From assembly GCA_016209345.1 (NCBI GenBank), contig JACQWH010000029.1, positions 1 through 57,291 of the forward strand: a stretch of DNA of 57,291 nucleotides, in the 5' to 3' direction. Numbering within the stretch: position 1 is the stretch's first letter; every line of letters begins with the position of its first letter. A model generated the notes under the pieces. That model did not search any database and was not told the DNA's origin. It saw only the letters and a program-made list of their open reading frames with translations. Positions 2,597-46,049 of this stretch are shown one piece after another. A program made the translations under genes and the position numbers. Source of the DNA: Candidatus Uhrbacteria bacterium (GTDB lineage Bacteria > Patescibacteriota > Patescibacteriia > JACQRZ01).

Positions 2597-4060
2597 TTAA
2601 TTTTTATAATACTTCGACTCTCTAACCATCTCTTCATCGACCTCCGCAGCTGAAAAATCATGCTTATTCGCTACATTCTCCTTATTTTTTTTAAAAAATA
2701 CAAAACTTTTCATCATCGGTTCATATCGATACCATGAATGCCATACTTCGTCCGATGCATTACTATAACCGACATAAAAAGATGACTTCACTTCATCCCA
2801 TCCGGTACCATCAACGTCAAAAAACGATATATCGTGTCCTCGAAAAGCAGGAGCCGGACCAGATATCCCCGGCTCACCACTATTTGGAATAGACACCCAT
2901 TCACCCCCTCTATTCTGCAAAACATAGACAATTTTTGCTTGCGCTGACACTCCCTCAATGATAATTGCTTGATTTCTTTTCCCGCTCGCAGAGATATGTT
3001 CATTGCTGATTTCTTGGGAATAAAACGTTACTGTATCATCTTTTTCTATACCATAAAAATTGTCACCATTACTATATCGTGTCGTTATTGGAGTTTTGTG
3101 AGTGATAATGCCCCGCGTTTCATTGAGTGTCAGAACGTATGTTGCGCCTTCTTCTTGCGATTGATCAAACGAAAGCCAGAACATACCGTTGCTTTGATAC
3201 GCATACGCACCAATGCCGATACTGACAACCAAAGATGCAAAAAAAATTGTAATGACACTCCATAGGAGCAAATTCTTATTTTTGCGATCAACCCCTTTAA
3301 GTGTATATGGCCGAACATCTTGTTTTATAAAGAGTATCGGCTTTTTTTCCAGTGTTATTCGTATATTCTCGATGCAGGGAGTACCATCGGCGACAATATC
3401 GATACGAAACGGCCTGGTGTTCTCCGTAAACTCCTTTTGAAACTCCTTTTTTTTGCCCTTAAGAATCTTACCGCACCAATACCACGCCTTGTGTGCATTC
3501 AAGTCCTCATTCTTCACGATCTTTCCATCAATCTTCAACTGGATGTCATCGTCGTCTTTTTTTGATTGCGGCGCCATGGCACTTATTGATACTGAAGCAA
3601 TGCCGAGCTCCTGGTATGTCATAAAAACAAGCCATGGCGTCCTGTCTCGCTTTTCTGTTTTGAGTCCATTGAGCTCAACTGTTTTGTTTTCGAGGAGATA
3701 CACCGCAATCGAGGAGAGCAGTGGCTTGCCAAGAACGGAAAAAGAAAGCGTCTGCGCTCCGGCAGAAAACGATGCAACAATATATGCCGTTTGCGCTGCG
3801 CCTTTCAAAATATTTCCGTTCCACAAATCATTGACAAGCAGTTTGTTTTTCCCTCGTATCGAAATAACGTTTTTATTGTTTATGAGCGGCGTCATGCTGT
3901 CTTTTTTCAAAAACGCTCGCCCATTCACCGTATTCTGCCACCAGCTTTTCGCGGATGCATGGATTTCAATACAGTACATACCAGCGACCTGCGCATCGAT
4001 GTTCACAGAGAAATCACTGTTCAAAAAAATGCCGTGCTGTTTGGAGTAAATTTTTTTCAT
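2597..4060 (-). CDS. Hypothetical single-pass membrane protein (orphan, AT-rich)
   Basis: 487-aa ORF with one central TM helix (LLLWSVITIFFASLVVSIGIGAYAY) and no family recognisable by eye. Visibly more AT-rich than the flanking pheT and pheS. Confidence 0.6.
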   Translation of the reverse strand: MKKIYSKQHGIFLNSDFSVNIDAQVAGMYCIEIHASAKSWWQNTVNGRAFLKKDSMTPLINNKNVISIRGKNKLLVNDLWNGNILKGAAQTAYIVASFSAGAQTLSFSVLGKPLLSSIAVYLLENKTVELNGLKTEKRDRTPWLVFMTYQELGIASVSISAMAPQSKKDDDDIQLKIDGKIVKNEDLNAHKAWYWCGKILKGKKKEFQKEFTENTRPFRIDIVADGTPCIENIRITLEKKPILFIKQDVRPYTLKGVDRKNKNLLLWSVITIFFASLVVSIGIGAYAYQSNGMFWLSFDQSQEEGATYVLTLNETRGIITHKTPITTRYSNGDNFYGIEKDDTVTFYSQEISNEHISASGKRNQAIIIEGVSAQAKIVYVLQNRGGEWVSIPNSGEPGISGPAPAFRGHDISFFDVDGTGWDEVKSSFYVGYSNASDEVWHSWYRYEPMMKSFVFFKKNKENVANKHDFSAAEVDEEMVRESKYYKN

Positions 4061-10063: not shown

Positions 10064-12343
10064 CTACCACAGCGGGAGCGATTTTGAAAATTCCGCAAGG
10101 CCGGGGGGAGGGTTGACCAGCATGCGTCCGGTGTTGACGATGATCTCCGAACCGCGGTTGCGTCCGCGGTAGACCCGCTGAAACATCATATTCCGAGCGA
10201 CAACGATTCCTTCAATCTCCAGAGGAACATCATAATAGTTCGTTTGCAAAACCGTACATGACGCGCTCCCGTCCGGCTGCTCGCTTTGCGTTCCTGTACA
10301 CGTATCGCCGCGGTCGGGACGAATGGTATGCGTTGTTTCAAACGAAACGCCCAAAGCAGAACATTCGCCTGCGCCCTGTCCGCCGTGCCCCGTACCCGTT
10401 GCAAAGGCATGCTCGGCAAAAAACGTTCCCGCGATCCGCGCAAGCTGTTTTCCTTGAGCAACATCATTCTGCGTTGGCGTACTGCTTGAAGCAAGGCAGT
10501 CGTCAATACTGATATTCCCCCCCGCCTTCCAGTCATCATCCGATATGTCTGCCGGCTTGCCGGGAGGAAGCGCTACGGCAGGGGTCACTCGCTCAAGGAC
10601 GATCCAGGAAATTGATGCCAGCTGGCGTATGTCCTTGACCGCAAGGGAACTATACTCGAACGGACGCTTGATGATAAGGTTGCCGCGAACCACGACGGTT
10701 CCCGCGCCGGGCACGCCGTTCATCGAACTGTAGATAATCTTTTTATCCGCATCATCTTCCCCGAGCACCAAGTCACCATCGTGATAATAAATGACAGCGC
10801 CCAATCCGTTTGCCGAGCTTGTCGCGGCGCTCCAGATTGCCGCTTCGTCGGCAATCCTTCTGACAAGATTTCCTTTTGCGTTTTTCTGCGGCACAAACGC
10901 ATCGGATGCGGGCATAAACCCGGACGTGTCAACGGTGCCAAGCATACTGCGCTTGATAAAGGAACGATTGGCGTTTTGGGACGCGCGCGGAAATGAAAGA
11001 TCGGCCAGTGCGCCTCGCCGCTCTTCCGACGGTGCCCTCGCGCGCGGATCAAATTGTTCTCTTCCGACACGGGAGCATGTCGAATTATCCGGATTGTCGC
11101 ACTCCCCCTCCCATGGAGCAATGACGCCCCTTTTTGTCTCACCGCCCTGGGTATATCGTCCCGTAATAATGATGTAGGGAGTATTGACTTCGCCGGGGGG
11201 CGGGGCGACGCCCGCGAATCCTTTTTTTGCAAAAATGTTTCCGCCCAGGGTTTGAACCCATACACCCGTAAACGACGAGTTCCACTTGCTCCTCTTCGCT
11301 GTCGTGTCATAGCTAATCTCCGTGCATTTCGCTCCGCAGATATTGGGATTCTGCCACAATGAACGGAATGCGTAGCTTGTGCTTCCTGAAAATGATATCC
11401 AGCGAACGCGCGGACTCCACGCCCATCCGACAAATTCCTTTTGCCAGGGATCGTACATGACTTGGTAATGGCAGACGTTCTCTTCCGGATGCAGGATGCA
11501 GTTTTTTCGTTCGGGCCAATTCACATACTCAGCGCCCGGCTCTCTGCCGGGGACGGGAACGGGAACGCTCGCGCTGTAAATCCTGCCGCCAAGTTTTACC
11601 CACCCGTCTTCCTTGAGCTGGCGTATCTTCAACCATCCGTTCACCGGATAGCGGCAATACTTCAGCGTGCGCTTGTTTTTCGGAATATGCTGCGCCATGA
11701 CCTCCTCTGCCGTCATTATTTTTTTCTCCTCGTCCGGCAAGAGCGCTTCATATACTCGCTCGGGGTGGTCGTAATCAAGCTCAGCGTACGCGCCTTTCGC
11801 GACTTGCTGTGGGTAAGCGTCTCGGTCAAGCGGATAGTCATCCCACGGCGGACGCATGCACGTCTGCCCGTCCGGATTCGTGCAAAAATTCTCCGAGCCA
11901 TTATTCCATCCGTACTGATCGCTGTCTCTCTTGCCGCATGTCTTGCCCCAACAGATAGACGGACAGTTGTTTGGCGTTCCCCTTTTTCGCTCCGCGGCGC
12001 AGACAAGCCGGCTGTATGATGACCAGCCGTAAATCTCGGCGCCGCTTTGCGGAGGTTCGTTTTTTTCCGGCAATTTTTGAACGCGGAATGGTGACGACGT
12101 GTCGTCAGCGGGCCACTGATGATAGATCCATCCCAGCATCGTATTCCAGGCGTTCCCGCCGATTGTCGCCGATTCGCTTTTCAGTCGTTTGAGTTCGGGG
12201 CATGGCTCGTCGGCGACGACATCATCGACCGACTCATCTGCCCGAACGATTGCCGCACGACCCGCACCACCAAAAATGACGACCAGGAAAAAAATGATCG
12301 CGTATGCAGCCGTGATAGTATGCGGTATGGTTCGTTGTATCAT
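10064..12343 (-). CDS. Large secreted/anchored Cys- and Trp-rich protein, unknown function
   Basis: 759-aa ORF with an N-terminal hydrophobic anchor (AAYAIIFFLVVIFGGAG). Many Cys/Trp/Pro-rich segments. No family recognised. Confidence 0.6.
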   Translation of the reverse strand: MIQRTIPHTITAAYAIIFFLVVIFGGAGRAAIVRADESVDDVVADEPCPELKRLKSESATIGGNAWNTMLGWIYHQWPADDTSSPFRVQKLPEKNEPPQSGAEIYGWSSYSRLVCAAERKRGTPNNCPSICWGKTCGKRDSDQYGWNNGSENFCTNPDGQTCMRPPWDDYPLDRDAYPQQVAKGAYAELDYDHPERVYEALLPDEEKKIMTAEEVMAQHIPKNKRTLKYCRYPVNGWLKIRQLKEDGWVKLGGRIYSASVPVPVPGREPGAEYVNWPERKNCILHPEENVCHYQVMYDPWQKEFVGWAWSPRVRWISFSGSTSYAFRSLWQNPNICGAKCTEISYDTTAKRSKWNSSFTGVWVQTLGGNIFAKKGFAGVAPPPGEVNTPYIIITGRYTQGGETKRGVIAPWEGECDNPDNSTCSRVGREQFDPRARAPSEERRGALADLSFPRASQNANRSFIKRSMLGTVDTSGFMPASDAFVPQKNAKGNLVRRIADEAAIWSAATSSANGLGAVIYYHDGDLVLGEDDADKKIIYSSMNGVPGAGTVVVRGNLIIKRPFEYSSLAVKDIRQLASISWIVLERVTPAVALPPGKPADISDDDWKAGGNISIDDCLASSSTPTQNDVAQGKQLARIAGTFFAEHAFATGTGHGGQGAGECSALGVSFETTHTIRPDRGDTCTGTQSEQPDGSASCTVLQTNYYDVPLEIEGIVVARNMMFQRVYRGRNRGSEIIVNTGRMLVNPPPGLAEFSKSLPLW

Positions 12344-15303: not shown

Positions 15304-15430
15304 TAAGCACCAAATCAAAAATCTTAAATCACAAATAAATCTGATCAAAATTCAAAACAATCAAAAAGCAGCGCTCTTTTGAATTTGAGATTTGGAACTT
15401 ATTTGGAGCTTGAGATTTTGGATTTGTAAT
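15304..15430. repeat. Type-2 AT-rich long hairpin element, copy X
   Basis: The left arm TAAGCACCAAATCAAAAATCTTAAATCACAAATAAATC... pairs imperfectly with the right arm ...GATTTGGAACTTATTTGGAGCTTGAGATTTTGGATTTG. Homologous in reverse orientation to 34396..34508. Confidence 0.55.
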
Positions 15431-15433
15431 TTA

Positions 15434-15483
15434 CCCCCCCCCCGAACCTACAACCTACCTCCTACCTCCTACCTCCTCCTTCT
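15434..15483 (+). repeat. C10 homopolymer followed by CCTAC-type short repeats in the 5' leader of the TolB-like gene
   Basis: CCCCCCCCCC (15434..15443) is followed by GAACCTACAACCTACCTCCTACCTCCTACCTCCTCCTTCT and then the ATG. Confidence 0.6.
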
Positions 15484-16719
15484 ATGCCCTGGAAACGCAT
15501 CCTCCTCATCATCGGATTCATTGTCGTCGTCATCCTGCTTGGCGCGTTGATTTGGTTTTTCTTTTTCCGTCCAACGCCAATCGCCATATCTCCTGTTCCG
15601 ACCCCGCCCACGCCGAGCCCGCTCCCCATACCCGGCCCGTATATCCCTTCGCCCGGGCCGCTCCCAACACCGACTCCGACACCCTCCCCCCTTCCTGAAC
15701 AGCCACAACTCCCAAAAACCGCCGAGGAAGCAAAAGGAGGGCCCGTCCAGACAACGCAGATTCAGCCGGATGCCAACATCGCACCAGCCCGTTCCTCTGA
15801 CGGCTCAAATGTCGTGACGTTCGACTCCTATACGGGAACATTCCACCGCATAAAGCCGGACGGCACTTCCGAACAGATCAGCGATCAAACATTTTCCGGC
15901 GCCACGAACGTGACGTGGTCGCCGAACGCGGACAAGGCAGTCATTGAATTTTTGGACGATACGAAAGTGGTGTATGATTTTTCGGGAAAAAAGCAGATTG
16001 CAACGCTTCCCAAACATTGGGAATCGTTTAACTTCTCTCCGGATGGAGAAAAAATTGCGTTCAAAAGCATCGCGTCAGACCCGGACAACAGATGGCTTGC
16101 AATAGCAAATGCCGACGGATCGGGCGGCACGCCTATCGAGCCGCTTGGTAAAAAATCCGAACAATTCACACCCCTCTGGTCGCCCTCCAACCAGATTATC
16201 GGTCTCTTTGAAGAAGGACTGGACGGCAATCGAAAAATGTTGTACTTCATCGGACAGAACAACGAAAATTTTAAGTCGGTGACTGTCGAAGGACGTGATA
16301 TCCAGGCGCAGTGGTCCCCGCTCGGTACCCAACTCCTGTACAGCGGCTATTCATCGCGCGCTGGCTTTCGTCCCGAATTATGGATTGTCGACGCGCTCGG
16401 GAGTACGATTGGAAACAATCGCAGAAAGTTTGACATCCAAACATGGGCGGAAAAATGCACATTTGCCAACAACGAGACGCTCTACTGCTCGGTACCAAAA
16501 ACACTTCCCGAGGGCGCGGGGCTTCTTCCCATTATCGCCGAACGCGACAGTACCGGAGAGGCCATTTATAAAATCGATTTGACGACAGGCGAGAAAAGAA
16601 AAATTGCCGAACCGGACGCAGCGCTTATTCTCACCAATCTTGTCGTCTCGACCGATCAGCAACAGCTGTACTTCACCGATAAATATTCCAAGAAACTCTA
16701 TACGATACAACTCCAATAA
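15484..16719 (+). CDS. TolB-like beta-propeller protein with N-terminal anchor and Pro-rich linker
   Basis: PD40-like repeats (WSPNADKAVIEF, FSPDGEKIAFKS, WSPSNQIIGLF, WSPLGTQLLYSG) follow a TM helix and a PTP-rich linker. Confidence 0.6.
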   Translation: MPWKRILLIIGFIVVVILLGALIWFFFFRPTPIAISPVPTPPTPSPLPIPGPYIPSPGPLPTPTPTPSPLPEQPQLPKTAEEAKGGPVQTTQIQPDANIAPARSSDGSNVVTFDSYTGTFHRIKPDGTSEQISDQTFSGATNVTWSPNADKAVIEFLDDTKVVYDFSGKKQIATLPKHWESFNFSPDGEKIAFKSIASDPDNRWLAIANADGSGGTPIEPLGKKSEQFTPLWSPSNQIIGLFEEGLDGNRKMLYFIGQNNENFKSVTVEGRDIQAQWSPLGTQLLYSGYSSRAGFRPELWIVDALGSTIGNNRRKFDIQTWAEKCTFANNETLYCSVPKTLPEGAGLLPIIAERDSTGEAIYKIDLTTGEKRKIAEPDAALILTNLVVSTDQQQLYFTDKYSKKLYTIQLQ

Positions 16720-29190: not shown

Positions 29191-31323
29191 CTACTCAAGA
29201 TGCACCGTACCCTGGAATTTTATGATATGATCTTTCAGTTCCGGATACGTTTCAAGAATGCCGACATACTCTTGCGCATACGTTCGTGCTTTTTCAATGA
29301 GCTCGGTATCAAACAATGTTGCGATTTTTAAGCTTGGCATACCGGACTGGCGCAAGCCGCGGACATCACCCTCTCCGCGCAATTCGAGATCTTTCTCGGC
29401 CAACGCAAAGCCGTCATTAGAGGCAACAACCGCTTTGAGGCGCGCAATCTGCTCCCTCTCCTCATTGGTTGGAGCCAAGAAGCAATACGACTGGTGCTCC
29501 GCTCTTCCGACGCGTCCGCGCAATTGATGAAGCTGTGCGAGGCCGAATCGTTCCGCGCCTTCAATAAACATCACGTTGGCATTTGGTACGTCAACGCCAA
29601 CTTCTACGACCGACGTTGTGACAATGATATCGACTTCATGGTCGCGAAATGCGGTCATGATCCTCTCTTTGTCGGCTGGCTTCAGCTTGCCGTGGAGCAT
29701 GGCAACGCGTTCGCATCGAAACGGTCCCTCTGTCAGCCGCTTATATTCCTCGGTCACCGACCGTACGCCAAGCGTGTCTGTAGGATTGATAATGGAACAG
29801 ATAACAAATGCCTGCCGTCCCCTGCCGATCTGTTTTCGGATAAAATCATAGGTCCATCCGCGATAGGATTGAGGGACGATTTTTGTAATGATTTTCTTTC
29901 GCCCTTTGGGCAGGGAGCGGATGGTGGAAATATCAACATCGCCATATACCGTAAGAGCGAGCGAGCGCGGAATGGGCGTCGCGGTCATCGACAACAAGTG
30001 CGGCATCAGTGAGTCGCGATTTTTTTCCCGCAGAACCTTTCTCTGCATGACACCGAAACGATGTTGTTCGTCTATGACTGCGAGCGCAAAATTTTTGAAA
30101 AAAATCTTTTCTTGCAAAAGCGCGTGCGTGCCGATGATGATATCAACACCACCGGTTGCTATCGTAGCTCTTACTTCTTGATTCTTAATTCTTGATTCGT
30201 GATTCTGCGCTGTCAAAAACGCAATGCGAACATCAAAATCCGCAAACAGCTTTTTTAATGTAGTAAAATGTTGCCGCGCCAATACTTCCGTCGGCGCCAT
30301 AAGCGCGCACTGATACCCCGCGCGCACGACGTTAAGCATCACCAGTACGGCGACAATGGTCTTCCCTGCGCCGACATCCCCTTGAAGCAGACGATTCATG
30401 GGCATTGAATGTTCGATATCGCGAAAAATCTCCCACGCCACTTCCTTCTGTTCTCTTGTCAGAGAAAACGGCAAAGATGCGATGAATGTTTTTGTCGCCT
30501 TCGCATCAAAAGGAATGGCGTGCGCAGACAGTTTCGCAAGCGAGTTTTTTACTCTTAAACTTGAGAGCTGATAAAGAAATAATTCTTCGAATTTGAATCG
30601 CCGCTCTGCGGCACGCGCATCCTCCAACCGATCCGGAAAATGAATATCCTCAAGCGCGTCGTATAATGAGGTCATCTGCTCGTTTGCAAGCAGATGGGCG
30701 GGAAGCCATTCACGTACGTCGCCACCACCACACGCATCAAGAGCGTTTCTCATGAGTGTTCGGAATTGTTTCTGGGTGATGCCGGATGGAAGCGAATAAA
30801 CCGGCACCAGGCGAGCGGTATGGAGGAAAATGGGGTCTGGCTCAATTTCGCGAAGAGAATTTGTGCCTGACCCCATTTTCTCATATACAGGACTGACCAT
30901 CTGAAGATCATAGTAACTATCGTTGGTCTTCCCGCTCAGAGAAACATATTCCCCGACATGAAGATTTTTTATCAAAAACGGCTGATTGAACCATATCGCC
31001 TTTATACTCCCGCTCTCGTCAGATATGAGCGCCTCCGTGACGATCATGCGCCTGTTCCGCGATCTTCTATTGCCAATCATATCAATACGCCCATGGATTG
31101 TTGCGCGTGTTCCGATGCTCAGATCGGCAATGGACGCGCTGTATGAAAAATCGTCGAACCGATAGGGAAAATAAAAAATGAGATCCTTGCAGGTCTCAAT
31201 TCCCATCTTCGCTAATTGCTTTTGGAGTACTGTGCCCACTCGAGGCAAGCTCGAAACGGGCATGTCGCTATCCGCCATACGCATTATGAGAGTGGTGAAA
31301 AATAGCTTCCCGGTCAGTTCCAT
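29191..31323 (-). CDS. recG: ATP-dependent DNA helicase RecG
   Basis: Wedge domain plus SF2 helicase motifs (GDVGAGKT, DEQHRFG, SMTATPIPR, the TTSVVEVGVDVPNA region, HQLRGRVGR). The true start is probably a downstream Met (MADSD or MPVSS). Confidence 0.9.
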   Translation of the reverse strand: MELTGKLFFTTLIMRMADSDMPVSSLPRVGTVLQKQLAKMGIETCKDLIFYFPYRFDDFSYSASIADLSIGTRATIHGRIDMIGNRRSRNRRMIVTEALISDESGSIKAIWFNQPFLIKNLHVGEYVSLSGKTNDSYYDLQMVSPVYEKMGSGTNSLREIEPDPIFLHTARLVPVYSLPSGITQKQFRTLMRNALDACGGGDVREWLPAHLLANEQMTSLYDALEDIHFPDRLEDARAAERRFKFEELFLYQLSSLRVKNSLAKLSAHAIPFDAKATKTFIASLPFSLTREQKEVAWEIFRDIEHSMPMNRLLQGDVGAGKTIVAVLVMLNVVRAGYQCALMAPTEVLARQHFTTLKKLFADFDVRIAFLTAQNHESRIKNQEVRATIATGGVDIIIGTHALLQEKIFFKNFALAVIDEQHRFGVMQRKVLREKNRDSLMPHLLSMTATPIPRSLALTVYGDVDISTIRSLPKGRKKIITKIVPQSYRGWTYDFIRKQIGRGRQAFVICSIINPTDTLGVRSVTEEYKRLTEGPFRCERVAMLHGKLKPADKERIMTAFRDHEVDIIVTTSVVEVGVDVPNANVMFIEGAERFGLAQLHQLRGRVGRAEHQSYCFLAPTNEEREQIARLKAVVASNDGFALAEKDLELRGEGDVRGLRQSGMPSLKIATLFDTELIEKARTYAQEYVGILETYPELKDHIIKFQGTVHLE
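30826..30880 (-). repeat. In-frame palindromic insertion element P3 (55 nt)
   Basis: The reverse complement is identical at 55/55 positions to P1. It sits in the same codon phase and encodes the same peptide, (K)MGSGTNSLREIEPDPIF, in the RecG N-terminal region. Confidence 0.8.
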
Positions 31324-34395: not shown

Positions 34396-34508
34396 AAAAA
34401 ATCACAAATTCAAAATTCCAAGCTCAAAATAAATCTCAAATCAAAAATTCAAAAAGGGGACAAACCTTTCGATTTATTTGTGATTTGTAATTTTGAATTT
34501 GGTGCTTA
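34396..34508. repeat. Type-2 AT-rich long hairpin element, copy Y
   Basis: The right arm GATTTATTTGTGATTTGTAATTTTGAATTTGGTGCTTA is the reverse complement of the left arm of copy X (15304..), allowing a few mismatches. Confidence 0.55.
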
Positions 34509-35787: not shown

Positions 35788-35844
35788 GAGGTAAGAATTA
35801 TGAATGAACGAAATCAAATCAATGGGTCCCTTAATTCTTAATTT

Positions 35845-36018
35845 CTTTGAATTACGAAACGCCACTTTTGTCATTCCGACCCCGTTCGGCTCACGGTGCT
35901 GTTCGCTCAGGGCAAGCTAGTAAGAAGTGGAGGAATCTATGCAGTTGAAAGGAAAATGTAGATCCCTCGACTTCGCTCGGGATGACAACACGGGCGTTAT
36001 TGCAGTTTCGAAATTCAA
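35845..36018. mobile_element. Type-1 MITE-like element (third copy)
   Basis: CTTTGAATTACGAAAC...GGGATGACAACACGGGCGTTATTGCAGTTTCGAAATTCAA. Its right end matches window bases 1..40. Confidence 0.6.
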
Positions 36019-37415: not shown

Positions 37416-37450
37416 TTAGGGGTTAGGGGTTAGGGGTTAGGGGTTAGGGG
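37416..37450. repeat. (TTAGGGG)x5 tandem heptamer
   Basis: Five perfect units. The sense strand (CCCCTAA)n supplies the last codons and the stop of the VirB4-like gene (..QTPNP-stop). Confidence 0.9.
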
Positions 37451-40400
37451 TCTGCCTCTTCTCATCTTCAAACTCCTTCTTTGCCGCCTCTATTTCCAGG
37501 AGTTGGCGCGGATCGGTGGTGATAAGCTGGTCTTCGGAATACGATGCAACCACCTTGATGGCAACATGTTTTGACCCGGCAAAGAAAATCCCTTCGCCCG
37601 GCCCTCCTTCTAATAATAGATACTTCTCACCCTCTGTCAATAAGAAGGTCTTTTGTACCGCATCGATCGCTGCCGATGATTGTTTGAGCAGAAGTTGAAT
37701 GGCCGAATTTGTCAGGATGGCGCGGCCGTATTGCGAGTTGAGAAAATCATTAACGTCCTGCGTAATGGTCGTCACTCCCAGATAATATTTGCGGCACCGC
37801 TTGGCAAGCGCAAAAATAAATCTGGCTGAGTCCTCATGCTGCATGAGCCACCACGCCTCGTCGATGACCAAAATCCTGCGCTTGATTTGAGATCGCACGA
37901 CATTCCAGATGTAGTTGATGATGGTGTAGATTGCGATAGGGCGCAGCTCGTCTTCCAAGTCGCGCACGGAGAACACGACAAGCTGGTTTTTTGTCTCGAC
38001 ATTCGTCGGCTTATTGAGCAGCCCCGCAAACGTCCCTTCGGTATATTTTTTCAGCTTTCCGGAAAGTCCCGCGCCGCCCTCCATGCCATCGAGCACATCC
38101 TGCAAATCGGTCAGTGTTGGGGGCTCAACGCCGGCGGACAGATCGGTTTGCGGCGTAATGTCTTTCTTCGCGTAGGCCTCCAGGAGCGCGCGATCAATAG
38201 TCGAATCCTCTTCTTGAGAAAACGCTCCCAGCATCAGCCGCATCAGCCCCTTGAGCGTAATGACCGCACTGCGAATAATGTCGGCGGTCGATACTTGCTC
38301 GCCAACCGGCCGCGGCAGATCAAACGGATTGATGCGACTTGTCGAGGAAAGAGATATGTTGACATAGGTACCCCCCACCGCATCGCAAAGATGCTTATAT
38401 TCGCGCTCCGGGTCTATCACCATAATCTCGGTTCCCATCATCATCGAGCGTAAAATTTCCAATTTTATGGCAAACGAGTTGTGTACAAAAAGTCCGCCGT
38501 GTCCTGCAAGAAACACTTCATTGTCGACGGTAAGATCGTACACGTACCGATCGGTATTTTTTATTCTTTTTATTGACGCTATTGGATCCCATATCAGATC
38601 GGCATCTGCAAGATTCTTCAGCTTTGCAATGAGCGCCTTCACGCGAGGAAGGCGAGACGCAATGCGCTGGTATTCGGATAATACATGGTGCGCAGCACTG
38701 CGCAACCGGCCGTATCGCATGTCGCCCCTCTCGCAAAGCCCCGTACGAAGAGAGCGATCGAAATCCTTCATCGAAAGGTTAAGCTGTCGAAATCCATAAT
38801 GAACAGCGTGCTTTACTTGTTCAAAATCTATGCTGTTGTACGAACTATATGACCACGCCCTCAATACATTTGTCGCGTACGGTGATACCCTCTGCTGCTT
38901 TATGTTGTTCCAGGTATGCCCCATCTCTTTCCAAAGAATGCCGTTTGTATTCTTATCGCAAACCCCCATGCCGATAACGGATGACATGTGGGGAAGCGCG
39001 GCTAACACCTCAAGCTCGTCTCTCAATACCTCAAAACGCCGCACCGCCTCATTCATCTGATCAATGACGGCATGGAGCTTCTCGCGCGATGGCTGATACG
39101 ACCCGTTTTTCAGCTCAATACAGTCCTGCATGCCGCGCAGATGAGATGGCAAAAGTTCATAGAGCTCCTGAAAAACGGTTTGGACGGGAATGGTGTCACT
39201 ATTTGTGTTGCTCTTCAAACCGAGAAGCCGCTTCAGCTTTGTATTCTTGCGTTGTGTGACAAATCCTATCGACTCAGCGTAGCGTGAAAGGTTTTCTTGG
39301 CCTGAAAGCGATAGCTGCCAATATGTTCTTCGCGTCTTCCTTGCGGTGTTGGTTGCATATTTATTTTTCTTCGACAAACGAACATGAATACCAAAACGAA
39401 GAAATACATATGCGAGATCGGAAACAAGCGCTTTTGATTTTGAAGTGGCGGTGACGGCATGGTTCTCGGCACACCCGTCTCCTTCAAAATAGGCCTTGAG
39501 AAATTCTGACAGTATGGACGATGACGCCCCAAACAATACTCCGGGAATTCGTTTGTCCGCTGATGTTTTTCCAATACCAAGCGCTTTAATATATTCCACG
39601 ATTACCCGACCGTGAATAACAAATGAGCCATCATCCTTGCGACGATAAAAAGAAAATCCTAGAGTGTTCAGACAATGGATAATATCGCTAACCACCGGTT
39701 TGTCCTCGTTTGAAATAAGAATATACCGTTCACGAATCGCGCCTTCACTCACAATATACCCCATCAATCGAGCTAATTCTGCCGTGAGATGCATAATGGG
39801 CGGCAGTGATGTCCCCTTCAAGCTGGTTGTCTTTGAACACAACCGAACTTCGGAATAGACGGCATGCGGATCAATGCCAAGATACGCAAGTATTTTCGAG
39901 AAATACCCAAGCGGAATCAGGCGACCGGTCCTATAGTTGTACCGGTAGCGATCAAAACGAGGATCGATGATCGCCCCTGCAAGGCGCGCGTAGTTCCTGG
40001 CTAGTACATACTGCCCGCCATCTATGTAGATTCTGCTATTATTCTCCAGCACTGCATATATGTCTTGCGTCGTGGTCGGATGTTCCGACTCCGACAACTC
40101 TCGTGCGAGAGGAATTGATTCGCCCGCGGAAATATCGGCACTCTTGTCTGCAACGACGACTCCATTGCGCAACACGAGCATATTATGGTCGCCCGTCACA
40201 GTAATTTCGCGCCCGCTCTTCATGGTAAACACGAAGAGATCGTCCGGCGCTTCTTTCCGAGCGGCGATGCTCACCGGGCTCCATTCGCCTTTTAATTCTT
40301 TATTAAAAGAATAGACCTGAATACCCGGATCAACGACACCTTCAAGATCATCATCGATCTTCTCAAAAACATGCTTTCTGGCGAGCGCGTCGATGGCAGG

Positions 40401-41306
40401 ACCGATCTGAACGAGCTTAATAGCACCGTCGCTATCCTTCATTAAAACCGGGGAAGATGATACTATGGACTTTCCTGCGCCGCTCGTTGCGAACACGACC
40501 TCGTTCGCGTTTTGCATGCTGAACCGGTCAAAGAGAATCAAGCTGTTATTGTGGCGATTGATGCCGTACAAAATGCCGTTGTCAGACGTGAGATCCGAAG
40601 AAATGAACGGAAACGCGGCAGCGGCAGGAGAGGTGTTCATATTAAATCCTATTGCCACCTCGTCGTTGCATAATGGCAATGTTGAGTTGAACCCCTGTTC
40701 CGCCTGGTAATAAACCCGCTTGGTGAAAATAAGTTTCGACCCGAACAGCCCCTCAATGTCTTCGGTGAGTTTGTCCAGCTCCTCAAGCGAGTTTGCAAGC
40801 AGCGTCATGTACACGCCGACCGTGAAAAAGTGCTCAATGCCCTGCGTGAGATCGTCACGCAAGCGCTCCATGTCGCGCAATGCCGTTTCCGCCATCGGAT
40901 CGCGCGGCTTTCCCTTTTCTTGTCCCGATGATATTTCCGCTTCAACCCTTCCCACTTTATTCCGCAGTTGTTTGAGAACAAGGGGAGTGCCGAGCGGTGC
41001 GAAAAAAATCGAGATGTCAAACGAGGCGGCGTAATTAATGATTGGCGCAAACCACCCGACATTGATATATCGAGGATACCCGATGACAAACACGGTTCGC
41101 GCGTATTTCGCGCCGACGCGCACGTACGACGGCTGTACCTCGAATGACGCGGGGCTGATTAAATCTTTCACGGCAACAAGTCCGCGGCGGTAAGCAAGCT
41201 CCTCTGCGATTGTCTGCTTTTGCTCCTCTTCTTTTTTCTGCGCAAGAACTTTCTTCTCTTGGGTCGGAGCTTTTTTTACCGCTTTTGCAATGGGTCGAAA
41301 GGCCAT
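37437..41306 (-). CDS. virB4: VirB4/TrbE-like T4SS ATPase interrupted by an intein
   Basis: Walker A ATSGAGK|S is split by the insert. Walker B RRILVIDEAWWLM. Also a RKYYLGVTTITQD motif and a VirB4-type region upstream (TVFVIGYPRYINVGWF). Confidence 0.85.
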   Translation of the reverse strand: MAFRPIAKAVKKAPTQEKKVLAQKKEEEQKQTIAEELAYRRGLVAVKDLISPASFEVQPSYVRVGAKYARTVFVIGYPRYINVGWFAPIINYAASFDISIFFAPLGTPLVLKQLRNKVGRVEAEISSGQEKGKPRDPMAETALRDMERLRDDLTQGIEHFFTVGVYMTLLANSLEELDKLTEDIEGLFGSKLIFTKRVYYQAEQGFNSTLPLCNDEVAIGFNMNTSPAAAAFPFISSDLTSDNGILYGINRHNNSLILFDRFSMQNANEVVFATSGAGKSIVSSSPVLMKDSDGAIKLVQIGPAIDALARKHVFEKIDDDLEGVVDPGIQVYSFNKELKGEWSPVSIAARKEAPDDLFVFTMKSGREITVTGDHNMLVLRNGVVVADKSADISAGESIPLARELSESEHPTTTQDIYAVLENNSRIYIDGGQYVLARNYARLAGAIIDPRFDRYRYNYRTGRLIPLGYFSKILAYLGIDPHAVYSEVRLCSKTTSLKGTSLPPIMHLTAELARLMGYIVSEGAIRERYILISNEDKPVVSDIIHCLNTLGFSFYRRKDDGSFVIHGRVIVEYIKALGIGKTSADKRIPGVLFGASSSILSEFLKAYFEGDGCAENHAVTATSKSKALVSDLAYVFLRFGIHVRLSKKNKYATNTARKTRRTYWQLSLSGQENLSRYAESIGFVTQRKNTKLKRLLGLKSNTNSDTIPVQTVFQELYELLPSHLRGMQDCIELKNGSYQPSREKLHAVIDQMNEAVRRFEVLRDELEVLAALPHMSSVIGMGVCDKNTNGILWKEMGHTWNNIKQQRVSPYATNVLRAWSYSSYNSIDFEQVKHAVHYGFRQLNLSMKDFDRSLRTGLCERGDMRYGRLRSAAHHVLSEYQRIASRLPRVKALIAKLKNLADADLIWDPIASIKRIKNTDRYVYDLTVDNEVFLAGHGGLFVHNSFAIKLEILRSMMMGTEIMVIDPEREYKHLCDAVGGTYVNISLSSTSRINPFDLPRPVGEQVSTADIIRSAVITLKGLMRLMLGAFSQEEDSTIDRALLEAYAKKDITPQTDLSAGVEPPTLTDLQDVLDGMEGGAGLSGKLKKYTEGTFAGLLNKPTNVETKNQLVVFSVRDLEDELRPIAIYTIINYIWNVVRSQIKRRILVIDEAWWLMQHEDSARFIFALAKRCRKYYLGVTTITQDVNDFLNSQYGRAILTNSAIQLLLKQSSAAIDAVQKTFLLTEGEKYLLLEGGPGEGIFFAGSKHVAIKVVASYSEDQLITTDPRQLLEIEAAKKEFEDEKRQTPNP
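38478..40469 (-). mobile_element. 664-aa intein with LAGLIDADG homing endonuclease domain in the VirB4 P-loop
   Basis: Begins with Ser (SIVSSSPVLMKD...). Block B TVTGDHNML. LAGLIDADG motifs LMGYIVSEGAI and FLKAYFEGDGCA. Ends ...VFLAGHGGLFVHN, followed by a +1 Ser. Removal restores GAGKSFAIKL. Confidence 0.8.
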
Positions 41307-41393
41307 AGGAATAGGGGTCAGTTGTCAGGGTATAGGTGTCAGAAAGTATTAGGAATGGGTTCTTACTGATAGCTGGAGCATGCAACCTGATTA

Positions 41394-42113
41394 CTAGGAT
41401 AGGGGTACTTCTTCGTCTCCTTCTACCTGAAGATCACTCAGGGGCGCCATACGCTGATTGGATGATGTTTCAGGGTTATAGGTAGTATAGTAAAGTTCTA
41501 TGAGGGACTGCGTATCAAGGCGGACGGTGTTGAGCCCCATGCCGACAAGACCGCCGGCAACGTTGCCGATGCGCTGGTCGAGCATATGCTTACGTTTAAG
41601 AAATTGTTCGTTTTTCAAACGCAGCTCGCCTGCGGCAAAAAAGACCTCATAAAGTTGTTTGAAAAATCCTCGCTTCATATCCGTAGCCGGATCGTATGGA
41701 ATCACGGCATAAAACTTTTTATCCATAATATCACCAAGCTGAACAAGTTCGGCGACGAATTGCCGATAGTCGGCCATCTGCATTTTAAGCAGATCGTTTG
41801 TCTGCTGCGCTTCGAGTTGCTCAAGACGCTTAATATATGTTGTGATGTCGTACTTGCGCGACTGGACCAGCACCTGGAGTGGGTAGTCGATGGTGTTGAG
41901 AAACTGCATATAGGACTGGATCGTCGCGTTCTGTTCGTCTTCCGACTTCAGAAAAAAATTGATGGAAGACACCAGCAGCACGCCGCGCAGGGTGCCGTCT
42001 TTGAGAATGACGGTATCGTTTTTTATCTCGGCAATTTCAAGATGTTTCTGCGTTGATGGCGTACCGCGATTCGCTTTCGGATTGGGCTCTGTTGTTTGTT
42101 TTTTCTTGGGCAT
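41394..42113 (-). CDS. Protein resembling the N-terminal domain of Gram-positive-type VirB4 (possible split-off VirB4 N-domain)
   Basis: HLEIAEIKNDTVILKDGTLRGVLLVSSINFFLKSEDEQNATIQSYMQFLNTIDYPLQVLVQSRK resembles the first domain of PrgJ/TcpF-type VirB4 proteins (from memory). 239 aa plus 625 aa of spliced VirB4 gives a typical VirB4 length. Confidence 0.5.
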   Translation of the reverse strand: MPKKKQTTEPNPKANRGTPSTQKHLEIAEIKNDTVILKDGTLRGVLLVSSINFFLKSEDEQNATIQSYMQFLNTIDYPLQVLVQSRKYDITTYIKRLEQLEAQQTNDLLKMQMADYRQFVAELVQLGDIMDKKFYAVIPYDPATDMKRGFFKQLYEVFFAAGELRLKNEQFLKRKHMLDQRIGNVAGGLVGMGLNTVRLDTQSLIELYYTTYNPETSSNQRMAPLSDLQVEGDEEVPLS

Positions 42114-42117
42114 AGAT

Positions 42118-42158
42118 CAGGTGTCAGGTTGCAGGTGTCAGGTTGCAGGTGTCAGGTT
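42118..42158. repeat. (CAGGTGTCAGGTTG) x ~2.9 tandem 14-mer
   Basis: Direct tandem copies. The sense strand encodes the C-terminal KPDTCNLTPAT-stop of the four-helix-bundle gene. Confidence 0.85.
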
Positions 42159-42516
42159 TATTACCGAGTTTTGTTATGAGGGTATTCAAAATTTTCATAA
42201 CCTCTATGAGTATTGTGTCAACATCATTATACTGGAGGTTCACACCAAAAGGCAATTTCTTTACGACGGCTATCTGTGTTTGCAGTTCAGCGCCCGATCC
42301 ATATGAAATATAAAGAAAGTGCCTATAATCCTTCCGCGTACCCCTCATACTTCCCTCAGCTATGTTTGACGGAATAGAAACTGCCGCTCGTTTCATTTGA
42401 GATGCTAGTCCGAAAACCTCTTCCCGGGGAAAATGACTCGTAAGTTCGTAGATTGCCAGAACCAGCTCAATACCCTTCTTCCATACTATCAAATCCTGAA
42501 ATGACTGTACTTTCAT
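42124..42516 (-). CDS. Four-helix-bundle protein (23S rRNA intervening-sequence protein family), copy 1
   Basis: FQDLIVWKKGIELVLAIYELTSHFPREEVFGLASQMKRAAVSIPSNIAEG...GSGAELQTQ matches the signature of this family. Confidence 0.8.
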   Translation of the reverse strand: MKVQSFQDLIVWKKGIELVLAIYELTSHFPREEVFGLASQMKRAAVSIPSNIAEGSMRGTRKDYRHFLYISYGSGAELQTQIAVVKKLPFGVNLQYNDVDTILIEVMKILNTLITKLGNKPDTCNLTPAT

Positions 42517-42529
42517 AAATTAATTTTTC

Positions 42530-42655
42530 TGATCACTGAAACCTGATCACTGAAACCTGATCACTGAAACCTGATCACTGAAACCTGATCACTGAAACCT
42601 GATCACTGAAACCTGATCACTGAAACCTGATCACTGAAACCTGATCACTGAAACC
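42530..42655. repeat. (TGATCACTGAAACC)x9 perfect tandem 14-mer
   Basis: 126 nt made of nine identical units. Each unit contains the palindrome TGATCA (with GATC) and TGA triplets on both strands. Confidence 0.95.
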
Positions 42656-43110
42656 TAAAACAACTCCGTCTCCTTCTCCTTTGCTTCACCCATATATGCC
42701 CCTCCGGTATCGACAATAAGCGCGAGATCGGCGAGCCGATGCCCGCTCACGCGCGGCGGTAAGGGCGGCGGGGTTTCCTTCAAGGCCTTTTCCTCCTTCG
42801 TCTCTTTTGCCGTGTGAATGACGCGGCGCACATCCTTTCTCCATACGCGCAGTGTCGGCCGGCTTGCCGTGCGCAGCGTATTGAGGAGAAAAAAATGGAA
42901 GGGCTGTCCGTTGATCCGCACAAACCCAAGCACGCCCGCGCATCCCCCGACAAGAATGGCGACAAAAATGAAGGCGGTCAGGTCTGTTGTTTTGTACGCA
43001 ACGAACAACAGCGCGCAGGCAACGAGGATGATCACAAACTGCCGAACGGTAATCGGCCCGAGTATGCGGTCTTCATTTTCAATAAATTGCGGAACGGTTA
43101 TTTGGTCCAT
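42655..43110 (-). CDS. PrgI-family (VirB3-like) T4SS membrane protein
   Basis: The start was moved to MDQITVPQFIENEDRILGPITVRQF, followed by two TM helices, the pattern typical of PrgI-family proteins. Confidence 0.65.
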   Translation of the reverse strand: MDQITVPQFIENEDRILGPITVRQFVIILVACALLFVAYKTTDLTAFIFVAILVGGCAGVLGFVRINGQPFHFFLLNTLRTASRPTLRVWRKDVRRVIHTAKETKEEKALKETPPPLPPRVSGHRLADLALIVDTGGAYMGEAKEKETELF

Positions 43111-43135
43111 GTCAACAAGAATTAAGAAACAAGAA

Positions 43136-43531
43136 TTAAGAATTACGAACAATCGATTTTGTGCCCTTAATAAGCCCGTTTGTTATTTTACTTACTGTTA
43201 TAGTATGCTGTGCGAGCGCTTGAAATATCTCCTTTTCAATATATCCGATATCACGCGCAATGAGTAACTGATTCTAAACTTCTGTAAGTGATCCGAGTGC
43301 TATCGAGTAGAACTGTGCCTTCTCCTTATATGACCCCCTGCCAAAACCCTCAGCAATGTTTGATGTTAATGAAACGGCAGCCCTACGAAGTTGATTTGTT
43401 AACCCAAACTGTTCTTCCTTTGGAAAGGATTGGGTTATCTTGTATATTTTCAGAACAAGGGTGTGGCCTTCTTGCCATGCTTTCAAATCTGTAAATGACC
43501 GGATCGTATGCTTGCTTAATTCTTGATTCAT
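43136..43531 (-). pseudogene. Four-helix-bundle protein, copy 2, with one in-frame TAG
   Basis: An 85-aa ORF, then TAG (43274..43276), then 45 more in-frame codons (NQLLIARDIGYIEKE...IVRNS-stop). The TAG aligns with Gln (CAG) of copy 1 (GAELQTQ against LTEV*NQ). Confidence 0.7.
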
Positions 43532-43555
43532 GATTCTTGATTCCTTTCTGCAAAT

Positions 43556-43586: not shown

Positions 43587-46049
43587 CTAGAACCGTAGCT
43601 TTTCATTCAACTCCAACAGCGCGTCAAACTCTTCCGCCGTGAGATATTCTTTTCCGGCTGTTTTTCTTTCTTCAACCAGCTTGTTCATATCCACGCCGAT
43701 ATTGATTTGCCCAATCTCAAGATAGAGCGCGTAGACATCGCTTTCCTTCCATGCCTTTATCGCTTCTGCCTTTTTCGTCAGCGATTGTTTTTCAAGCGCC
43801 TGAATTTTTTCATAGATACGCTTTACCGACTCTTTCGGGTCTTGGGAAAGCCGGCGAAAATCCTTAATGGTAAGCGCGCGAATCTCATCAATCACGCCAA
43901 CGAGCCGCGGCGCTGCTTTCACATCCGCAACTTTCGTTTTCGGGGCGCCCGCCGTCGGCGTTGCGCGAACCGTCACGGGAATGGGAATAGGTTTCAGGTT
44001 ATAGGTTTCAGGTTTCAGGGGGGGTGCAGTACTAGGGGCTAGGGTAGAGGGTTTAGGGGTTAGTTGGGGACCAACAGGGGTTGCGGGTGGGGTCTGTACC
44101 TCCCCTTGATTCGTGATTCTTGATTCTTGATTCTGTCCCGTGATTCGTGATTCTTGATTCTGCCCCTGCCCTCCTCTTGCCTCCCCTTGATTCGTAATTC
44201 GTGGTTCTTGATTCGTGATTCCTGTTTCCTGTTTCTCCGTCTTTTCCAGCGATAATTTTTCGTTTTTCATTTTTCGTTTTGCGCTTGACTGCACCAGCAT
44301 CGGCACGCCATCCACTTCTTTAATGACCATCACTGGCTCAGGTTTCAGGTTATAGGTTTGAGGTTTCAGGGGTGGCTCAGGAACAGGTTGCAGGTCATAG
44401 GTTTCAGGTTTCAGGGATGGTGTGGCTGACCCCATTTCTGCCATTGATTCGTGATTCGTGATTCTTGATTCCTGCTTCTGTGCCCCCCCTTGATTCGTGA
44501 TTCTTGATTCCTGATTCTGCCCCGTGATTCGTGATTCCTGCTTCTGTGCCCCCCCTTGATTCGTGATTCGTGATTCTTGATTCTGCCCCGTGATTCTTGA
44601 TTCTTGATTCTGCCCCGTGATTCCTGAATCGTAAAGCTGTTCTAACCCCTTCCCCGCCACAATCGCCTGCGCTGCCACGTTCGCCTCTTTCAAAAGTTTC
44701 TCGGCATCCTCAGGAGACAATCCGGCGCCGCCATCGGCAAGCGCCGCTTTCAGCCGTTCGCTCGTATCAATACTGTTGCGAATATTGCGCACGCGCGATG
44801 AAAGAATCGGCTTTACCCGGCTAGTGACATCGTCGGAAAGTTTTACCGCAGCCGCCTCAAGAATATGTGTGATAACCCTGTCATAATCAACCACCAAGGC
44901 AGGTTGTAGGTTGTAGGTTGTAGGTTGTAGTAAGGGCTCGGGGTGTACCGACGCCACGGCAGCAACGTCATTGCGGGGAAGCGCAGCGACCGCAGGGAGA
45001 GATCCCTCTTTCTCTTGATTCGTAATTCGTGATTCTTGATTCTGTCCCGTGATTCTTGATTCTTGATTCTGTCCCGTGATTCTTGATTCTTGATTCTGTC
45101 CCGTGATTCTTGATTCTTGATTCTGTTCCTCCCCCGGCACCCCCGGCAGCTCTCGCGCGGTTTTCGCCTCAAGTTCCGCCAAGTGATATGGGATAACCAT
45201 CCAGTGTTCCGGCGATGTCTTCTGAAAACTTTCCGGAAAATTTTTCAACACCGTAAATGTTTCAAACAGCCGCCGCAATGCCTCTTTGTCCTTTTCCGAT
45301 AGCTTCTTTGCGTTCGCGTTATCTGTCATGTACTGCGCGATTTTAATGCTTGACGCAGTCCCGCCGGAAAATCCCAAAAGATCCTGAATCCAATTGCCAA
45401 CGGTCGGCGGCTGCCCGTCTTTTTCCCCAACGCGCATCGTCTCTTTGCCAATATGCTCCTCGTTTGCGTAGAGCGATTTAAGAAGCGTATCAACGAATCC
45501 CTCGATGTTTGAAATGAGAAAAATGATGGTGTTGTTCAGTGACACTTTGTACGGATCGTCGGGGGCATAAAAATGACAGGTAAGATTTTTCTCAAAAAGC
45601 GCCGCCATGTCTACCGCTCCCTTTTCTCTATTGGCATCAAGATCTTCAATCTCTGCCGCTTTTTCGCGCAACGCCTCATTTATCGTTTTCAACAACAATG
45701 GCATGGTCTTGCTCTCTTCAAGCGCTTTTTCCGGATCACCGTATTTTTTTTGAAAATACTCAATGTGATTCCCAAAAAAATCAATAAATGGCAGAACGAG
45801 ATTAATAAAAAATGTCCGCTCGAGTGCTGTTGCTTGCTCCTCCGAAATGCCCAAACGCTGCAAAAATATTCCCCTAAGATCTTCAGGCCGTATATTTTTT
45901 TTGAACAATTCCTCAATGATATCATTGAGAGCATCCTGCTCCTTTGTAAAAAGATTGAGCTGCGACTTTACCGAATCTATCCAATAATAAAACTCCGGCG
46001 ACAGTAAAATCGATCGAATATATTGTGGTATGTTTTCAAGATATGACAT
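43587..46049 (-). CDS. 820-aa protein with globular ends and long low-complexity repeat linkers
   Basis: Long ORF in operon orientation. The N-terminal ~290 aa and C-terminal ~120 aa look globular. The middle is made of GQNQESRIT, PETYNLKP and P/T/A-rich repeats. Confidence 0.6.
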   Translation of the reverse strand: MSYLENIPQYIRSILLSPEFYYWIDSVKSQLNLFTKEQDALNDIIEELFKKNIRPEDLRGIFLQRLGISEEQATALERTFFINLVLPFIDFFGNHIEYFQKKYGDPEKALEESKTMPLLLKTINEALREKAAEIEDLDANREKGAVDMAALFEKNLTCHFYAPDDPYKVSLNNTIIFLISNIEGFVDTLLKSLYANEEHIGKETMRVGEKDGQPPTVGNWIQDLLGFSGGTASSIKIAQYMTDNANAKKLSEKDKEALRRLFETFTVLKNFPESFQKTSPEHWMVIPYHLAELEAKTARELPGVPGEEQNQESRITGQNQESRITGQNQESRITGQNQESRITNQEKEGSLPAVAALPRNDVAAVASVHPEPLLQPTTYNLQPALVVDYDRVITHILEAAAVKLSDDVTSRVKPILSSRVRNIRNSIDTSERLKAALADGGAGLSPEDAEKLLKEANVAAQAIVAGKGLEQLYDSGITGQNQESRITGQNQESRITNQGGAQKQESRITGQNQESRITNQGGAQKQESRITNHESMAEMGSATPSLKPETYDLQPVPEPPLKPQTYNLKPEPVMVIKEVDGVPMLVQSSAKRKMKNEKLSLEKTEKQETGITNQEPRITNQGEARGGQGQNQESRITGQNQESRITNQGEVQTPPATPVGPQLTPKPSTLAPSTAPPLKPETYNLKPIPIPVTVRATPTAGAPKTKVADVKAAPRLVGVIDEIRALTIKDFRRLSQDPKESVKRIYEKIQALEKQSLTKKAEAIKAWKESDVYALYLEIGQINIGVDMNKLVEERKTAGKEYLTAEEFDALLELNEKLRF
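45029..45129. repeat. 27-nt tandem repeat (GTGATTCTTGATTCTTGATTCTGTCCC) x3 plus a shortened unit
   Basis: Units at 45049..45075 and 45076..45102 are identical, and 45103..45129 has one mismatch. The sense strand encodes (TGQNQESRI)n. Confidence 0.9.

Follow-up and report, generated by a model that had tools for sequence, protein, structure and literature searches.

How can 7-nucleotide (7-nt) tandem repeats, of the kind found in the spacers between genes, lie inside a conserved gene and leave its reading frame open? The question is raised by an open reading frame (ORF) of 820 amino acids (aa) at 43587..46049, on the minus strand, of contig JACQWH010000029.1 (assembly GCA_016209345.1), the whole of which (57,291 nt; C22 in our numbering of contigs) we call the window. 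The host is an ultra-small groundwater bacterium from the Candidate Phyla Radiation (CPR) and is Uhrbacteria-like, the nearest homologs of the window proteins being labelled Candidatus Uhrbacteria; its genome assembly comprises 1.06 Mb in 84 contigs and is 93% complete. The ORF encodes a conserved multi-domain protein, of unknown family, within an operon resembling those of type IV secretion systems (T4SS). A preliminary description of this DNA had noted that three motif families occur both between genes and, free of stop codons, inside the ORF, and had suggested that slippage-prone spacer DNA was recruited as, or expanded into, flexible protein linkers of probably hypervariable length. We find here a clear and extreme case of slippery repeat DNA that is tolerated and translated within a gene, and not a new type of system. 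In the explanation that we consider probable, dispersed heptamer arrays enter, or persist in, permissive disordered linkers, in stop-free form only, and change length in frame-keeping steps by slippage or unequal recombination.

Every motif family in the ORF proved to be a tandem array of a heptanucleotide. Three 7-nt units make 21 nt and traverse all three frames, so that they encode a 7-residue peptide: GAA TCA NGA ATC ANG AAT CAN reads E-S-R-I-T-N-Q, and CCT GAA ACC TAT AAC CTG AAA reads P-E-T-Y-N-L-K. We scanned for motifs with up to 1 mismatch, took expected numbers from shuffled sequences, and called tandem repeats with Tandem Repeats Finder (TRF). The GAATCAN family, GAATCANGAATCA, has 39 matches in the window where 0.57 are expected; 33 are in the linkers of the ORF, three in the arm of a neighboring gene cassette (43517-43543), and three in frame in recG (30179-30205). 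For the AACCTNN family, AACCTNNAACCTNNAACC, there are 10 matches (0 expected), located at 43990-44014, 44341-44410 and 44902-44926 in the ORF and in a 14-mer array at 42127-42158, and an exact 14-mer match to the ORF, AACCTACAACCTAC, occurs at 15445-15458. The CCCT family, CCCTNNNCCCTNNNCCCT, has 5 matches (0.07 expected), at 44034-44058 in the ORF and in an array of five CCCCTAA units at 37416-37451; its copy in the ORF also has 13-mers in common with CTAGGGG-type arrays of other contigs.

The repeats listed in the preliminary description are therefore all present and each is far above its shuffled expectation, including the non-coding relatives of the GAATCAN repeats at 43113-43150, 43514-43543 and 35790-35845, and the region encoding TPKPSTLAPS and the heptamer array at 37416 both match the CCCT motif. 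The near-perfect 27-nt units were recovered by TRF as 3.9 copies with 97% matches (45021-45126). One proposed relationship holds only in part: the repeats encoding PETYNLKP-type peptides are related to the spacer arrays at 42127-42158 and 15445-15458, and only loosely to the one at 42529-42656 (CTGATCACTGAAAC, 9.1 copies). TRF also reported a 66-nt unit in 2.4 copies (44457-44612) and rows of period 7, 14 or 21 all along 43987-45126, and the ORF has 13 tracts of three to four near-identical 7-nt units. It also contains two more elements, namely an arm of the hairpin repeat that is dispersed in the genome, GCTGACCCCATTTC, at 44421-44437, and a short (CGAAAAA)n tract at 44256-44280.

The arrays occupy particular parts of the protein. 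An alignment of seven homologs, among them the window protein (P0001) and its syntenic ortholog at locus L013 (P0002), resolves into four conserved blocks (aa 1-305, 385-470, 572-603 and 690-820), between which lie three linkers that cannot be aligned, all on the minus strand. The N-terminal helical domain (aa 1-305, 45135..46049) aligns to P0002 free of gaps, with 75% aa and 73% nt identity. Linker 1 (aa 306-384, 44898..45134) contains the 27-nt unit, which consists of GGACAG and three GAATCAN units and is repeated 3.9 times within 45013-45126, a relic module encoding LPRNDV, and 4.3 copies of CCTACAA at 44901-44930. The middle helical domain (aa 385-470, 44640..44897) is kept in relatives and is also gap-free against P0002 (74% aa identity). 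Linker 2 (aa 471-571, 44337..44639) has GAATCAN arrays organized into the 66-nt super-unit (2.4 copies, 44445-44632), the hairpin-repeat arm, and two CCTGAAA/CCTATNA arrays (44338-44415). It is followed by a conserved mini-block with an MVIKEVDGVP beta-hairpin (aa 572-603, 44241..44336), whose basic tail is here replaced by the (CGAAAAA)n tract. In linker 3 (aa 604-689, 43983..44240), GAATCAN arrays occupy 44105-44236, a degenerate array of CCCTNNN lies at 44030-44070 and one of CCTGAAA/CCTATAA at 43987-44019. The C-terminal helical domain (aa 690-820, 43587..43982), again gap-free against P0002 (87% aa identity), is the mark of a large uncharacterized family, with 2,633 cluster representatives at E <= 1e-3, and forms the C-terminus of most of them.

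In the tract at 44256-44280 the heptamers encode KRKMKNEK, and all the homologs have a conserved mini-block tail KKNGNGKKK; the basic motif was apparently replaced here by repeat DNA that encodes a similar composition.

Domains and linkers have fared very differently. Compared with P0002, the domains have no gap at all and retain 74-87% aa and 71-79% nt identity, whereas amino acid identity falls to 33% in linker 1 (with 28 gap columns), 23% in linker 2 and 37% in linker 3 (29 gap columns). Across the seven homologs the linkers span 34-84, 13-105 and 43-125 aa, respectively. At period 7, self-similarity extends over 64-72% of each linker, compared with 0% in the three large domains. Disorder is predicted for the linkers: disorder-promoting residues make up 71-81% of each, and an AlphaFold2 model built from a shallow alignment (overall mean pLDDT 45) has helical domains, where pLDDT reaches 90 within aa 1-130, and coil with pLDDT 21-31 at aa 301-388, 466-574 and 587-718, linker 1 itself scoring 23-30. 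As far as comparison shows, the 820-aa ORF is one genuine protein. In 39 of 41 related genomes, its N-terminal, middle and C-terminal blocks were matched within one open frame, approximately 700-1,020 aa long, and all indels of the ORF relative to its orthologs keep the frame.

Genome-wide, TRF assigned period 7 to 176 of 632 rows, with a further 58 at period 14 and 18 at period 21; period-7 arrays are the dominant class of tandem repeat in this genome. They are concentrated outside genes, at 39.9 array bases per kb of non-coding DNA compared with 2.8 per kb of coding DNA, a difference of about 14-fold that is approximate in that the gene calls are crude longest ORFs (89.6% coding). The 820-aa ORF, with 561 array bases, ranks top among all genes, and the next has 165, in a 21/42-nt coiled-coil repeat. 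Measured by 11-mers in common with intergenic DNA, the coding segment that begins at 43987 comes out top of 2,164 coding segments of equal size (23.5% in the linker region of the ORF, where the median is 7.0% and the 99th percentile 12.9%). Within the ORF, 60-nt bins in the linkers contain 42-303 intergenic 11-mer matches and bins in the domains about 7. Exact matches of at least 13 nt join the linkers to dozens of arrays on other contigs, most of them intergenic, and 13-mer matches to GAATCAN, CCTGAAA and CTAGGGG arrays extend over more than 25 contigs. Single-linkage clustering of the heptamer units placed 100 of 110 in one network; chaining is to be expected, and we set this result aside as uninformative. 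The starts of several contigs lie within long heptamer arrays (C13 1-114, C54 1-125, C76 1-84, C25 1-23 and C35 1-22); the repeats therefore break assembly, and copy numbers in this metagenome-assembled genome (MAG) may be unreliable.

The coding arrays also differ from the non-coding ones in how they treat the reading frame. For all four arrays of at least 50 nt in the ORF, the best period is a multiple of three (27, 21, 66 and 27 nt), which holds for only 5 of the 24 arrays in non-coding DNA (Fisher p = 0.006); the rest of the latter have periods of 7, 14, 25 or 28 nt and reach 21 pure units. A pure CCTGAAA array has TGA in one phase, which closes every frame, and spacer copies retain this TGA. 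In three of three coding arrays of the CCTGAAA type, the unit in the TGA phase has TAT instead and the units in the other phases stay CCTGAAA-like. The GAATCAN-type units in the ORF are the stop-free variants GAATCAA, GAATCAC and GAATTAC, in the sense orientation only; the antisense orientation closes all frames, and the common spacer variant GAATTAA is closed both ways. These signatures are as expected of translated array DNA that has been filtered for an open frame. Relative to transcription, the arrays in spacers have no A/T strand bias (23 vs 27), and we attribute the A-rich sense strand of the ORF to stop avoidance. At the RNA level, the linkers fold no better than shuffled sequence (z = +2.06 for linker 1, which is less structured than its shuffles, +1.25 for linker 2 and +0.36 for linker 3). 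We rejected an architecture of hairpins like those of Rickettsia palindromic elements (RPEs) for the linker arrays, because these z-scores are not below shuffles and the GAATCAN units all lie in one orientation.

Orthologs bear out the expectation that the globular parts are kept while the linkers vary, since both the sequence and the length of the linkers change between species. The claim of hypervariable linkers is thereby supported at the between-species level only; no near-identical strain was found among metagenome contigs, where the relatives are distant (44-52% identity, mostly in the C-terminal domain only). Period-7 arrays made of different units are present in the linkers of orthologs from other genera, at L013, L004, L005, L008 and L011, and were not found in those at L002, L006 and L010. 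At L013, CCCTAAC-type units occur both in the linkers and in the spacers at 13629 and 17566. The linkers of the same-genus ortholog at L002 have 92-nt modules instead. Part of these modules is a small hairpin, GGATCCCCGAACAAGTCGGGGATGAC, which recurs at no fewer than 8 further sites of that genome; two of these were inspected, and both are intergenic. Arrays of the window type are absent from P0003-P0006, and related arrays occur at matching positions in P0002. Among 147 family representatives we found no 7-residue periodicity; repeat signatures of the kind described here were confined to close relatives, and a long tandem tract, with a period of 9 residues, occurred in P0001 only. The in-frame super-units of 27 and 66 nt show recent expansion in the window lineage, where the 27-nt block has been amplified to four copies, adding about 28 residues.

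Evidence that array DNA can move between loci comes from two unrelated genes elsewhere in the genome. The sole likeness between a RarA-like gene (C46 561-1937) and an RluD-like gene (C78 162-1151) is an in-frame insert of 33 residues with 79% identity. The DNA of this insert (C46 1130-1240 and C78 865-965) is nearly identical in the two genes, with hairpin arms GGAAATGGGGTC...GACCCCATTTCC around five GAATNAN units, and its GGACAG junction is the same as the 6-nt spacer that heads the 27-nt unit of the ORF. Inter-locus copying therefore occurs in this genome. The transfer would have run from spacer to linker, because array density is some 14-fold higher in non-coding DNA and because in-frame copies exist in unrelated housekeeping genes.

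We propose that the protein is organized as beads on a string–its N-terminal, middle and C-terminal domains, with a small beta-hairpin block ahead of the last–joined by three linkers that would be disordered and only weakly constrained in sequence. In the window lineage the linkers would have been filled by the dispersed heptamer repeats of the genome, of the same families as the spacers and the arms of 23S-IVP cassettes. To survive in the gene, an array would need an orientation and a unit variant that are stop-free in every phase, a requirement that follows because 7 is not a multiple of three and three units traverse all frames. Resident arrays would then lengthen or shorten by slipped-strand mispairing, which we infer as the mechanism of expansion, or by unequal recombination, and only changes divisible by three would persist, which would explain why the ORF has super-units of 27, 66 and 21 nt where spacers have 7 or 14. 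The inserts are presumably neutral or nearly so and not adaptive. Of the earlier suggestion that spacer DNA was recruited or expanded as linkers, what stands is the shared repeat families, the placement in linkers only, the predicted disorder and the 27- and 66-nt expansion; the data fit tolerated colonization as well as they fit recruitment in an adaptive sense.

Several points weigh against this explanation. The crude gene calls blur the comparison of coding with non-coding densities, and in a short-read MAG with several contigs ending in heptamer arrays the arrays may be collapsed or mis-sized. That the ORF is translated as a single product we infer from conservation. The matching arrays of P0001 and P0002 show that some arrays are old residents evolving in place, and spacer transfer may therefore not apply to every array. 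The segment of linker 1 encoding LPRNDV has no other copy in the window's genome. We accordingly rejected this segment as a repeat copy of that genome; it matches linker modules of two orthologs (G001 and L013), and modules encoding LPRNDV (GTCGCTGCGCTTCCCCGCAATGAC) lie in the linkers of three orthologs (44940-45000 in the window, 2997-3088 at L002 and approximately 10740-10790 at L013). It is probably an inherited relic of a hairpin repeat family that was lost in the window lineage.

The alternative with the best claim is that the arrays arose in place by de novo slippage on proto-repeats, with no input from spacers, and that their likeness to spacer arrays reflects a shared mutational bias toward heptamers. 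Linker 1 of both P0001 and P0002 begins with GAAT-type units followed by GGACAG and finishes with a CCTA-type array, so local persistence and evolution are possible; the expansions of the 27- and 66-nt units clearly took place locally; and Mrazek and colleagues, as cited in PMC4679880 and PMC4692102, put forward a bias to 7-nt slippage that is linked to the polymerase. A purely local origin is nevertheless unlikely, although it has an outside chance, because exact matches of 13 to 34 nt tie the linkers to other loci, including a non-repeat junction, GAAATGGGGTCAGCAACAGGACAGAATCAAGAAT, on contig C46, because an almost identical composite element in two unrelated genes implies inter-locus copying, and because orthologs from other genera have unrelated heptamers or none.

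A bolder view, to which we would give a slim chance, treats the arrays not as passive filler but as frame-shifting switches in each of the three linkers, yielding graded truncated isoforms of a protein of a secretion or competence machine, or as products of an active array-seeding system, linked to the four-helix-bundle cassettes, that would maintain one set of unit families in both spacers and linkers. The switch taken by itself–gain or loss of a 7-nt unit shifting the frame, so that a component of the secretion machine would be made as N-terminal domain only, N-terminal plus middle domain, or both plus the mini-block–strikes us as quite improbable. Simulated slips of +7 or -7 nt do give products of 362-399, 543-550 and 660-667 aa, which end shortly past a linker; arrays open in three frames would let a shifted ribosome read to the linker end; and heptanucleotide repeats drive phase variation in other bacteria (PMC8262952). 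The uninterrupted tracts in the ORF, however, have only three or four units and are broken by 6-nt spacers, whereas spacer arrays have up to 21 units, and the latest expansions in the ORF have all been frame-keeping, which suggests selection against frame shifts.

Very improbable, in our view, is that the peptides QNQESRIT and PxTYNLxP are themselves selected, as short linear motifs for binding or modification, with the intergenic copies being incidental or derived from coding sequence. Peptides similar to P-x-(T/P)-Y-x-L-x-P do precede the middle domain, the mini-block and the C-terminal domain in both P0001 and P0002, but P0003-P0006 lack them, as do nearly all of the 147 family representatives. 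The DNA units are far commoner outside genes, where they occur in both orientations, the same units are found in unrelated proteins, and the tyrosine codon sits exactly where the array would otherwise read TGA. Finally, we consider hardly credible the idea that the ORF is an artifact, either a chance fusion of small genes across repeat spacers, which the orthologs led us to reject, or a product of assembly errors in the linker arrays: stop-free heptamer arrays, open in all frames, could fuse neighboring ORFs, and arrays do break the assembly at several contig ends, but the same four blocks in the same order share one frame in those 39 of 41 relatives, including orthologs without heptamer arrays, and the indels between orthologs preserve it.

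Dispersed heptanucleotide repeats were reportedly described in cyanobacteria by Mazel et al. in 1990, as short tandemly repeated repetitive (STRR) sequences. The known families of such simple sequence repeats (SSRs) include GGGAATC in Xanthomonas and GGGGAYT in Nostoc (PMC4692102) and TAACTGA in Beggiatoaceae (PMC4679880). Like them, the arrays described here consist of tandem 7-nt units that are over-represented genome-wide and lie mainly in intergenic DNA near gene ends, with turnover of length and sequence between related species and the same logic of stops and orientation. They differ in that many unit families coexist in a CPR genome of 1 Mb, and in that arrays of at least three families, about 570 nt in all, lie in frame in one conserved protein, where they make up most of three linkers; the heptanucleotide SSRs of cyanobacteria, Xanthomonas and Beggiatoaceae are not described as whole linkers of a conserved protein. 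In the literature that we searched, we found no paper describing heptamer arrays in Patescibacteria.

The tandem repeats of Borgs are a second parallel (Schoelmerich et al., 10.1101/2022.05.18.492195). They occur both between genes and in ORFs, where all units are divisible by three compared with 14-38% of intergenic ones; those in ORFs encode disordered regions missing from homologs, and they break assemblies. The divisible-by-three rule in the ORF is common to both systems, as is linker disorder, which is a prediction in our case. Borg amino acid tandem repeats (aaTRs), however, are reported to be essentially unique in sequence to each locus, with units of about 18-21 nt or more, whereas here 7-nt units are common to dozens of loci and only their super-units (21, 27 and 66 nt) are divisible by three. 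RPEs and repeats of the REP (repetitive extragenic palindrome) and MITE (miniature inverted-repeat transposable element) types are selfish or neutral elements found both in intergenic DNA and in frame within genes (PMC10969869, PMC3733652). Like our arrays, these elements are tolerated in surface loops or linkers; they are absent from orthologs, and they are hairpins of fixed length, whereas the ORF arrays are direct repeats that vary in unit number; a single hairpin arm (44421-44437) is embedded in the ORF.

The closest neighbors for comparison are two cassettes of the 23S-IVP (PF05635) four-helix-bundle family, immediately 3' of the 820-aa ORF, one of which is decayed. Their PF05635 matches (42184-42498 and 43175-43489) both lie beyond the bounds of the ORF. 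The decayed cassette has a non-coding GAATCAN array as one arm (43515..43543, minus strand), about 45 nt 3' of the ORF, and AAGAATT/GAATTAA units as the opposite arm (43114..43149, plus strand); the intact one is flanked by a 14-mer array, AACCTGACACCTGC (42117..42158, minus strand). The arm at 43515-43543 has the same GAATCAN units as the ORF, in the same orientation, approximately 560 nt from the nearest linker array. The ORF differs in having neither a PF05635 gene nor an inverted arm, and only the unit family is common to both.

Elsewhere in the window, a GAATYAN array on the minus strand (30169..30206) is in frame within recG (29191..31323), where it encodes NHESRIKNQ, and a non-coding CCTACAA/CCTACCT array on the plus strand (15445..15477) is directly upstream of a gene starting at 15484. 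There are also gene-less intergenic hairpins with inverted heptamer arrays as their arms, at 15311-15411 (CAAATCA/TTTGGAA), 34397-34501 (AAAATTC/ATTTGTA) and 35790-35850 (AAGAATT/CTTAATT). Similar inverted pairs of arrays flank orthologous genes in L004, L011 and L013.

The 820-aa ORF is part of a co-directional T4SS-like operon. Upstream is a 1102-aa membrane protein gene that is weakly TrbL/VirB6-like, and 3' of the ORF are PrgI, a 239-aa gene whose L013 counterpart matches a TraC-like family, and an intein-bearing VirB4-like ATPase. The operon at L013 is syntenic: upstream of the ortholog is a VirB6-like gene, and downstream are genes for PrgI, a TraC-like protein and VirB4. The 820-aa protein itself had no match in Pfam, in NCBIfam or in a profile search of the PDB. 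Between the 820-aa gene and PrgI, L013 has a gene with an NYN domain (11562-12083) where the window has the decayed PF05635 cassette (43175-43531), and the junction looks like an insertion hot spot for small genes. The spacer upstream of the VirB4 start (41306-41394) is a degenerate heptamer array, CTGACAC CTATACC CTGACAA CTGACCC CTATTCC. At the other end of VirB4, at its junction with the next gene, is an array of 5.1 CCCCTAA units (37416..37451, minus strand) that is closed in three frames, covers the VirB4 stop codon and finishes 4 nt ahead of the start of the next gene. In the related organism, the syntenic locus has an array of this unit family at the corresponding gene junction (L013 17566-17595), which suggests that these arrays form a conserved 'universal stop' spacer.

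For practical work, such arrays break short-read assemblies and inflate the apparent divergence of proteins, and the low-complexity segments that they encode mislead homology searches; the linkers of orthologs could also act as sensitive strain markers. For the biology of these genomes, the ORF shows non-coding repeat DNA becoming protein sequence. Even with a unit length that three does not divide, a repeat can reside in a gene if it is stop-free in each phase, and the filter that the frame imposes on such repeats is visible in the 27- and 66-nt super-units and in the replacement of TGA by TAT in one phase of the array. Dispersed heptanucleotide repeats, seen earlier mainly in cyanobacteria, Xanthomonas and Beggiatoaceae, are hereby extended to the ultra-small genomes of CPR bacteria.

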